A stretch of DNA of 47,728 nt from Escherichia coli (lineage in GTDB: Bacteria; Pseudomonadota; Gammaproteobacteria; Enterobacterales; Enterobacteriaceae), in NCBI RefSeq assembly GCF_003334765.1, contig NZ_QOWT01000031.1; one strand, given 5' to 3'. The notes beneath the pieces were generated by a model, which searched no databases, was not told where the DNA came from, and saw only the letters and a program-made list of their open reading frames with translations. This document shows, in pieces, positions 7,788 to 9,816 of this stretch. Position numbers and translations under genes: made by a program. Within the stretch, counting starts at the first letter, position 1. Every line of letters starts with the position of its first letter.

Positions 7788-8092
7788 TGACCACATTTAC
7801 CAATAAAGAACTGATTAAAGAAATCAAAGAACGAATCAGCAGCCTAGAGGTTCGAGACGATATTGAGCGCCGTGCTTATGAAATCGCACTCGTATCTCTG
7901 GAAGTAGAGCCAGATGAACGCGAAGCCTATGAATTATTCATGGAAAAGCGTTTCGGTGACTTAGTAGATCGTCGGAGAGTAAAAAACGGCGATAACGAAT
8001 ACATGGCATGGGATATGACTCTCGGTTGGATCGTCTGGCAGCAACGAGCTGGTATCCATTTTTCAACAATGACACAGCAAGAGGTGAAATAA
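7787..8092 (+). CDS. yfdT: YfdT-like prophage protein (101 aa)
   Basis: ORF; its stop overlaps the xis ATG (TAATG). Confidence 0.5.
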   Translation: MTTFTNKELIKEIKERISSLEVRDDIERRAYEIALVSLEVEPDEREAYELFMEKRFGDLVDRRRVKNGDNEYMAWDMTLGWIVWQQRAGIHFSTMTQQEVK

Positions 8093-8463
8093 TGGAGCCA
8101 TACAGCCTCACACTCGATGAGGCCTGTCAGTTTCTTAAGATATCCAGACCAACCGCCACCAACTGGATACGAACAGGCCGCCTACAGGCAACACGTAAAG
8201 ATCCAACCAAGCCAAAATCTCCTTACCTCACAACACGGCAAGCTTGCATTGCGGCGCTTCAGTCTCCGCTGCATACTGTCCAGGTGAGCGCGGGTGATGG
8301 CATAACAGAGGAAAGAAAATGTCACTCTTCCGCAGAAATGAAATATGGTATGCCTCGTATTCGCTCCCGGGCGGGAAACGAATTAAGGAATCTCTTGGCA
8401 CAAAGGACAAGCGGCAAGCTCAGGAGTTGCACGACAAGCGAAAAGCAGAACTCTGGCGAGTAG
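8092..8463 (+). CDS. Excisionase (Xis)-like DNA-binding protein; reading frame runs 145 nt into the integrase gene, possibly C-terminally altered
   Basis: N-terminal about 75 aa resemble excisionase HTH ([26 protein letters not shown]); the rest overlaps int in another frame. Confidence 0.5.
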
Positions 8464-9482
8464 AAAAGCTAGGGGATTTACCTGATGTCACTTTTGAAGA
8501 GGCCTGCCTAAGATGGCTTGAGGAAAAAGCTGATAAAAAATCTCTCGATTCAGATAAAAGCCGGATTGAGTTCTGGCTTGAACATTTTGAGGGTATAAGG
8601 CTTAAAGATATCTCGGAGGCAAAGATTTACTCTGCTGTAAGCAGAATGCATAACAGAAAGACGAAAGAAATATGGAAACAGAAAGTTCAGGCCGCCATCA
8701 GGAAAGGTAAAGAACCGCCTGTTTATGAACCAAAGCCAGTATCAACTCAGACAAAGGCAAAGCATCTTGCCATGATAAAGGCCATTCTCCGTGCTGCAGA
8801 ACGCGACTGGAAGTGGCTGGAAAAAGCGCCTGTCATCAAGATACCAGCGGTCAGAAACAAGCGAGTCAGATGGCTGGAAAAGGAGGAAGCAAAACGCCTT
8901 ATTGATGAGTGCCCCGAACCACTGAAATCTGTCGTCAAGTTTGCGCTGGCAACTGGTCTGAGAAAGTCGAACATCATAAATCTGGAATGGCAACAAATCG
9001 ACATGCAGCGACGAGTTGCCTGGGTGAATCCAGAAGAGAGCAAATCAAACCGCGCCATTGGTGTGGCGCTGAACGATACCGCCTGTAAAGTGTTGCGTGA
9101 TCAAATAGGCAAGCATCACAAATGGGTGTTTGTACATACCAAGGCGGCTAAGCGAGCAGATGGAACATCAACGCCTGCGGTCAGGAAGATGCGCATCGAC
9201 AGCAAGACATCATGGCTATCAGCTTGTCGTCGTGCAGGAATTGAAGATTTCCGTTTCCATGACCTCAGACACACCTGGGCAAGCTGGCTGATCCAGTCAG
9301 GCGTCCCATTATCTGTGCTTCAGGAAATGGGCGGATGGGAGTCCATAGAAATGGTTCGTAGGTATGCTCACCTTGCGCCTAATCATTTGACAGAGCATGC
9401 AAGGAAAATAGACGACATTTTTGGTGATAATGTCCCAAATATGTCCCACTGTGGAATTATGGAGGATATAAAGAAGGCGTAA
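8319..9482 (+). CDS. intD: Phage tyrosine integrase (DLP12 IntD-like, 387 aa)
   Basis: C-terminal catalytic motifs of tyrosine recombinases ([14 protein letters not shown]); ends 16 bp from the tRNA-Arg 3' end. Confidence 0.9.
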
Positions 9483-9497
9483 CTGATTGAATTGTAA

Positions 9498-9574
9498 TGG
9501 CGCGCCCTGCAGGATTCGAACCTGCGGCCCACGACTTAGAAGGTCGTTGCTCTATCCAACTGAGCTAAGGGCGC
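9498..9574 (-). tRNA. argU: tRNA-Arg (anticodon UCU)
   Basis: 77-nt reverse-complement match to a cloverleaf with anticodon loop CU-UCU-AA, T-arm GGTTCGAATCC and 3' CCA; prophage attachment site. Confidence 0.9.
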
Positions 9575-9816
9575 GTTGATACCGCAATGCGGTGTAATCG
9601 CGTGAATTATACGGTCAACCCTTGCTGAGTCAATGGCTTTTGATCTGGTTGCTGAACAAGTGAACGACCGCGTCTGATTTTCTGATTTATTTCGCTATAG
9701 CGGCAAACAAACGCACACCGCTGCGCGTCTGAATCAAGAAAACCCGTATTTTCATGTATCAAAGTACAATTTCCCGACCTAACGGAAAATTGTCCGCTCC
9801 TATGAGACTGGTAACT

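Follow-up and report, generated by a model that had tools for sequence, protein, structure and literature searches.

The excisionase gene (xis) of the prophage in the 47,728-nt stretch of Escherichia coli DNA analysed here (hereafter the window) continues in its own reading frame well into the integrase gene (int) that follows it, which raises the question of whether this xis has decayed or whether both genes genuinely overlap. An initial annotation had put forward either alternative, i.e. a frameshift or lost stop codon with decay of excision capacity, or a genuine overlapping arrangement. The overlap it had measured was borne out, as xis indeed runs for 145 nt (8319-8463) into int in another frame. 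The Xis-like ORF it had described as 124 aa long likewise proved real, but its product counts 123 residues, the figure of 124 including the stop codon: xis comprises 372 nt, from the ATG at 8092 to the TAG at 8461-8463. The evidence presented below indicates that the window xis is very probably an intact P22-type excisionase gene in the normal arrangement of its family.

Table 1. Features of the xis-int module and its surroundings in the window.
Feature	Coordinates	Strand	Remarks
Upstream yfdT-like gene	7787..8092	+	Its TAA (8090-8092) shares 1 base with the xis ATG (TAATG)
Shine-Dalgarno-like GAGGTG of xis	8081..8086	+	5 nt before the xis ATG; read from sequence
xis, P22-type excisionase (recombination directionality factor)	8092..8463	+	123 aa + TAG; ORF and homology
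N-terminal winged-helix DNA-binding domain of Xis (residues 1-60)	8092..8271	+	AF2, Foldseek; no overlap with int
Shine-Dalgarno GAGGA of int	8308..8312	+	Inside xis codons 73-74; 6 nt before the int ATG
int, P22/DLP12-type tyrosine integrase (IntD), intact	8319..9482	+	387 aa; ORF and PHROG profiles
Dual-coding segment, 145 nt	8319..8463	+	Xis residues 76-123; Int residues 1-48 plus one base
P22-class xis stop site	8439..8442	+	Window CGAA (Int Arg41-Lys42, Xis Glu117); P22 CTGA (Int Leu41, Xis TGA)
xis stop TAG	8461..8463	+	Int Val48 (GTA) contributes its positions 2-3, Int Glu49 its position 1
tRNA-Arg(TCT) (argU), integration target	9498..9574	-	3' end 15 nt past the int stop; marks the prophage end

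Because the conserved sequence, the annotation of P22 and the GAGGTG Shine-Dalgarno-like motif all agree on position 8092, this was taken as the real start of xis. An in-frame ATG further upstream (8008, opening an ORF at 8008-8463 of 151 aa) was rejected as a start, since the extension is not conserved and xis of P22 begins at the equivalent of 8092; an upstream start codon is chosen in some records (SfV, APSE-7). The gene preceding xis carries the PGAP name yfdT in a genome of identical sequence.

The Xis protein matched PHROG 2907 ("excisionase") from end to end (E = 1.1e-45, with residues 1-116 aligning to positions 2-117 of the 117-position profile), so that this family is itself about 116 aa long. 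Homologues in the protein database were mostly 115/116 or 122/123 aa long, giving a family range of 115-123 aa, and P22 Xis aligned collinearly with the window Xis over residues 1-122, tail included, at 75% identity. A tblastn search of phage records with the window Xis returned 162 records, including P22 (75%), SfV, SfI, ST64T, ES18, APSE and HK446, and in 161 of them the match covered at least 80% of the query. The earlier remark that this protein is longer than typical excisionases thus holds in comparison with other Xis proteins, such as the 58-aa chain of mycobacteriophage Pukovnik, but not within its own family. Xis of phage lambda has 72 aa.

At the domain level, Pfam assigned an HTH_17 domain to residues 6-36 of Xis (E = 6.8e-8), and TIGR01764 ("excise") scored 27.7 bits, just short of its cut-off of 28.8. 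The same Pfam scan gave no match to the lambda-type excisionase profile, its other matches being weak generic HTH families. In the AF2 model, residues 1-60 reached block-mean pLDDT values of 78-91 with the topology E-H-H-E-E-H, and Foldseek retrieved Pukovnik Xis (4j2n) as the best match to this N-terminal domain (target TM 0.72-0.74 over 53-55 residues). Pukovnik Xis, which is devoid of a C-terminal extension, was also the best PDB sequence match, covering residues 1-55 of the window protein at about 25% identity. Codon-position diversity in this non-overlapping part of xis amounted to 0.32/0.20/0.58, as is typical of a single coding frame. By its profile, its predicted winged helix and its position overlapping int, the window protein is a member of the P22-type Xis family. 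The remainder of Xis was modelled as a disordered linker (residues 63-87), a helix of moderate confidence (residues 89-103) and a disordered basic end, with pLDDT values of 42-63 for the tail.

The first alternative raised for this locus, that a frameshift or lost stop codon in the window prophage ran xis into int as a sign of lost excision capacity, could draw on the 7 residues by which the window Xis exceeds P22 Xis (NP_059585.1), the latter being annotated in RefSeq as 116 aa (351 nt) and overlapping int by 124 instead of 145 nt. However, the full-length alignment of both proteins is collinear and free of frameshifts, the int gene is intact, and both modules share the winged helix followed by a long tail, the 227-nt offset between the xis and int starts, the frame relationship and an Int of 387 aa. 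Moreover, homologues were found to carry a long overlapping xis consistently, not only in P22, SfV, HK446 and APSE-7, but in all 29 intact xis-int pairs that were compared. These consisted of the window, P22 and 27 loci out of the 38 recovered in a scan of one genome per species, and represent diverse Enterobacterales down to about 41% Xis identity. The 123-aa form in particular is common to relatives of the window, as it recurred in 12 species-level loci, in APSE-7 and in 79 of 80 near-identical IMG/VR loci (126 aa in the remaining one). The viral-contig scan yielded 98-100% identical loci only, and served as a population check that is useless for divergence tests.

A decayed xis might also seem to be indicated by PGAP, which marks the identical sequence in E. 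coli strain AMSCJX02 as a 66-nt pseudogene ("incomplete, missing C-terminus"; locus 1806-1871). The best explanation for this call is that the long overlap misled the annotation. Many phage records likewise had no xis CDS under the tblastn match, and the authors of the phage L record added xis by hand; because of the long overlap with int, gene callers systematically miss xis. A prophage like that of the window could as a result be wrongly scored as devoid of an excisionase, or as "grounded". A further argument against decay comes from a sequenced phage, Escherichia phage PhiR49_1, in which the same module is found unchanged: over positions 2698-9496 the window matches the complete genome record of this phage at 100% identity, and the record ends at 9496. 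A literature search on the origin of PhiR49_1 (e.g. by induction) returned nothing specific. Taken together, we consider decay of the window xis highly improbable, and the genuine overlap proposed as the second alternative by the initial annotation is the one that stood.

Another argument for decay might be sought in the related DLP12 prophage of E. coli K-12, which does carry a truncated xis. DLP12 has the same integrase as the window (99.6% DNA identity over 8224-8700) at the same location between argU and fimZ, but its similarity begins only at window position 8224, the first approximately 44 xis codons being deleted. The xis remnant of K-12 thus represents real decay of the same module, in contrast to the complete copy in the window. 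In K-12, pseudogene fragments of exonuclease, P and ren, together with an IS3, take the place of the missing 5′ part of xis.

The length of the overlap was not continuous among the 29 intact pairs, but fell into two classes. It measured exactly 124 nt in 17 of them (Xis of 115/116 aa) and 145 nt in the other 12 (Xis of 122/123 aa), with int starting 224-227 nt past the xis ATG in P22-type modules. The int frame is +2 relative to that of xis, so that position 3 of an int codon is position 2 of a xis codon. The window belongs to the 145-nt class, which is spread over Citrobacter, Pseudocitrobacter, Siccibacter, Erwinia, Pantoea, Serratia and APSE phage. Annotated relatives with the same family and overlapping layout include Xis of SfV, SfI and SfX (Shigella), HK446 (coliphage) and APSE-7 (Hamiltonella), at 40-78% identity to the window protein; SfV and HK446 are annotated with a 124-nt overlap, whereas APSE-7, at 47% identity, has 145 nt like the window.

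Both classes could be traced to codon 41 of int. In the 124-nt class this codon (8439-8441 in the window) specifies Leu (CTG, CTA, TTA or TTG) and ends in a purine in 17 of 17 loci, creating a TGA or TAA in the xis frame together with the A of codon 42, so that xis stops at int codon 41. In the 145-nt class it specifies Arg, which leaves the xis frame open for 7 more codons until a TAG or TAA is formed by Int codon 48 and the next base. In the window, an Arg codon (CGA) takes the place of the P22 Leu codon (CTG) at Int residue 41, and xis is 7 codons longer than in P22 as a result. The idea of a lost stop codon was correct only in this narrow sense, i.e. the TGA at xis codon 117 of P22 is absent, but does not describe a lesion, as the same holds for the whole class. 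Int codon 48 (8460-8462 in the window) reads GTA or the rare ATA throughout the 145-nt class (12 of 12 loci), whereas it wobbles freely in the 124-nt class (GTC, GTG, GTT, ACA or GTA), and Int Arg47 of the 145-nt class is encoded by CGA or AGA in 12 of 12 loci. Synonymous choice in int, as seen at codons 41, 47 and 48, thus preserves both the xis stop and the Glu with which Xis ends. The extra length of the window Xis is a character shared by its class and not a private lesion.

The int gene, named intD by PGAP, was examined for a later start codon that would make the overlap smaller. This was rejected, since the PHROG integrase families match Int from residue 1 (PHROG 10426 over residues 1-192 and PHROG 1 over residues 5-378), the predicted fold begins at residue 2, and every aligned Int homologue starts with Met-Ser. 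Matches of Int to Xer/integrase NCBIfam models fell short of the respective cut-offs, which is to be expected of a phage Int. When Xis was modelled by AF2 as a fusion to Int residues 1-75, Int residues 2-51 formed three strands followed by a helix, which we interpret as the putative arm-binding domain. A GAGGA, AGGAG or AAGGA motif occurred at the equivalent site upstream of int in 29 of 29 loci, and because this Shine-Dalgarno is embedded in xis codons 73-74, Glu73 of Xis is near-invariant. A simple sigma-70 consensus scan detected no plus-strand promoter within xis, and hence no site like pI of lambda.

Conservation of Int might in itself keep the xis frame open, so that the winged helix (approximately 60-75 aa) would be functional alone and the last 48 codons would be a tolerated by-product of read-through. 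In agreement with such a by-product, nucleotide diversity in the overlap follows the int frame (0.26/0.23/0.42 at int positions 1/2/3), and the most variable position, at 0.40-0.42, is int position 3, so that Int dominates. Since this is at the same time xis position 2, the Xis tail is only weakly constrained. Several invariant tail residues are moreover set by Int, such as Cys77 by Met1-Ser2, Gly86 by Trp10, and the Leu-Leu-Ala-Gln-Arg-Thr stretch of Xis by Ser-Leu-Gly-Thr-x-Asp of Int. The tail is also predicted to be mostly disordered, and about 55-72 aa suffice for the function of other Xis proteins.

However, the degree to which the frame is open argues against mere tolerance. Elsewhere in int, stops in the xis frame are spaced some 12-30 codons apart (13-29 stops per gene). 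When Int codons 1-41 were recoded synonymously, the frame remained open in only 18-56% of cases per lineage, a proportion that still leaves some room for read-through given the Int protein, while in all 29 diverse loci, down to about 41% Xis identity, it ended precisely at int codon 41 or 48. Premature xis stops arose in 33-71% of the null recoding trials but in 0 of the 29 loci. By this comparison of reading frames, the openness of the xis frame across int exceeds what would be expected by chance.

Synonymous variation in int pointed in the same direction. Among identical Int residues, synonymous differences amounted to 0.36-0.47 in codons 2-41 versus 0.55-0.58 downstream, and the overlap was the 40-codon stretch of int with the lowest value (0.39 versus 0.57; MWU p = 7.5e-7 for all 29 loci), none of 295 40-codon int windows being as low. 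In a thinned set of 8 loci, the per-column synonymous test still gave p = 8.9e-5. A synonymous dip at the 5′ end of a gene can also stem from translation-initiation constraints, but here it spans approximately 40 codons. Moreover, the effect was class-specific: Int codons 42-48 showed a synonymous variation of 0.46 in the class that is overlapped there versus 0.62 in the class that is not, and the next 12 codons showed no class difference in that direction (0.57 versus 0.53). Finally, as a null for the identity of the Xis tail, synonymous drift of int was simulated for every clade pair at the background rate of that pair; in 15 of 15 pairs the observed identity lay above the mean of the null (individual p values of 0.002-0.45). 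With the stop confined to just two positions and kept there by the codon choice of Int, we regard the tail as a mere by-product as unlikely. The weak constraint on its residues is as expected for a flexible segment, of which the frame and end point are nonetheless maintained.

The predicted helix of the tail (approximately residues 89-103) and its basic end might provide a functional contact for Int or for neighbouring Xis protomers, encoded within the DNA for Int residues 1-41 or 1-48. We put this forward tentatively, as a possibility that falls well short of being probable. In a crude AF2 model of Xis fused through a linker to Int residues 1-75, the tail helix gained no confidence (pLDDT of 50-59, versus 57-63 for Xis alone, with a pTM of 0.27), and docking onto the N-terminal domain of Int was thus not supported, although contacts are not part of the output of the tool. 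Such a contact would mean that excisionase and integrase are physically co-inherited and forced to co-evolve, and that a single Int residue, Leu41 or Arg41, switches Xis between 116 and 123 aa. The comparative data offer a clean, small example of dual-frame selection and could guide tests of the P22-type Xis tail. The xis-int overlap itself is already known, as P22 has for decades been annotated in this way, and the window copy is an ordinary, intact member; the signature of dual-frame selection and the Leu41/Arg41 length toggle are the only mildly new points. Our literature search returned no specific statement on the xis/int overlap.

As to function, binding and bending of att DNA are reported for purified P22 Xis (Mattis et al. 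2008, as cited in PMC7498355), and at high concentration the protein is proposed there to block re-integration. The anatomy of the window module, its homology, the conserved overlap and selection on both frames are shown by the comparisons above. In the window, xis and int have separate Shine-Dalgarno sites and the int start lies within the reading path of xis, so that ribosomes translating xis cross it in the other frame; Xis translation ends 124 or 145 nt inside int in modules of this type. Following the P22 and lambda paradigms, induction would give rise to a single early leftward transcript, from which xis and int would each be translated by means of their own Shine-Dalgarno. By analogy, the winged helix of Xis would bind repeated att-arm sites and bend the DNA, and Xis would make Int favour excision over re-integration.

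Comparison with lambda suggests the same role for the window Xis as a winged-helix directionality factor, encoded upstream of and overlapping int. The two proteins show no detectable sequence-family match, however, so that the resemblance is one of function and not of membership. The lambda xis gene overlaps int by only about 20 nt, and the tail of lambda Xis contacts Int. This Int-contacting role belongs to lambda Xis and is not established for the P22-type tail.

The right end of the element lies at the tRNA-Arg gene, beyond which fimZ is found, and thus corresponds to the argU/DLP12 integration site of E. coli. P22 has a different integration site, namely thrW. Upstream of the tRNA-Arg gene, a near-consensus sigma-70 promoter was observed on the minus strand at 9606-9633 (TTGACT, a 16-nt spacer and TATAAT; 11 of 12 matches), which is presumably the argU promoter. 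At the other side, the window is no longer identical to PhiR49_1 to the left of position 2698 (1-2697, as opposed to 2698-9496), and this boundary points to a mosaic junction within the prophage's early region.

In strain AMSCJX02, of which the xis region is identical to that of the window, the intD gene (locus 2033-3196) was flagged by PGAP with an "internal stop". The window int is intact, and it is thus in some of its hosts that this prophage has a decayed integrase. Enterobacterial xis-int modules were furthermore encountered on contigs labelled as a Collinsella sp. MAG (98% identity), Chryseobacterium sp. 18061 (86%) and a Segatella copri MAG (41%), which probably reflects assembly contamination or mis-binning.
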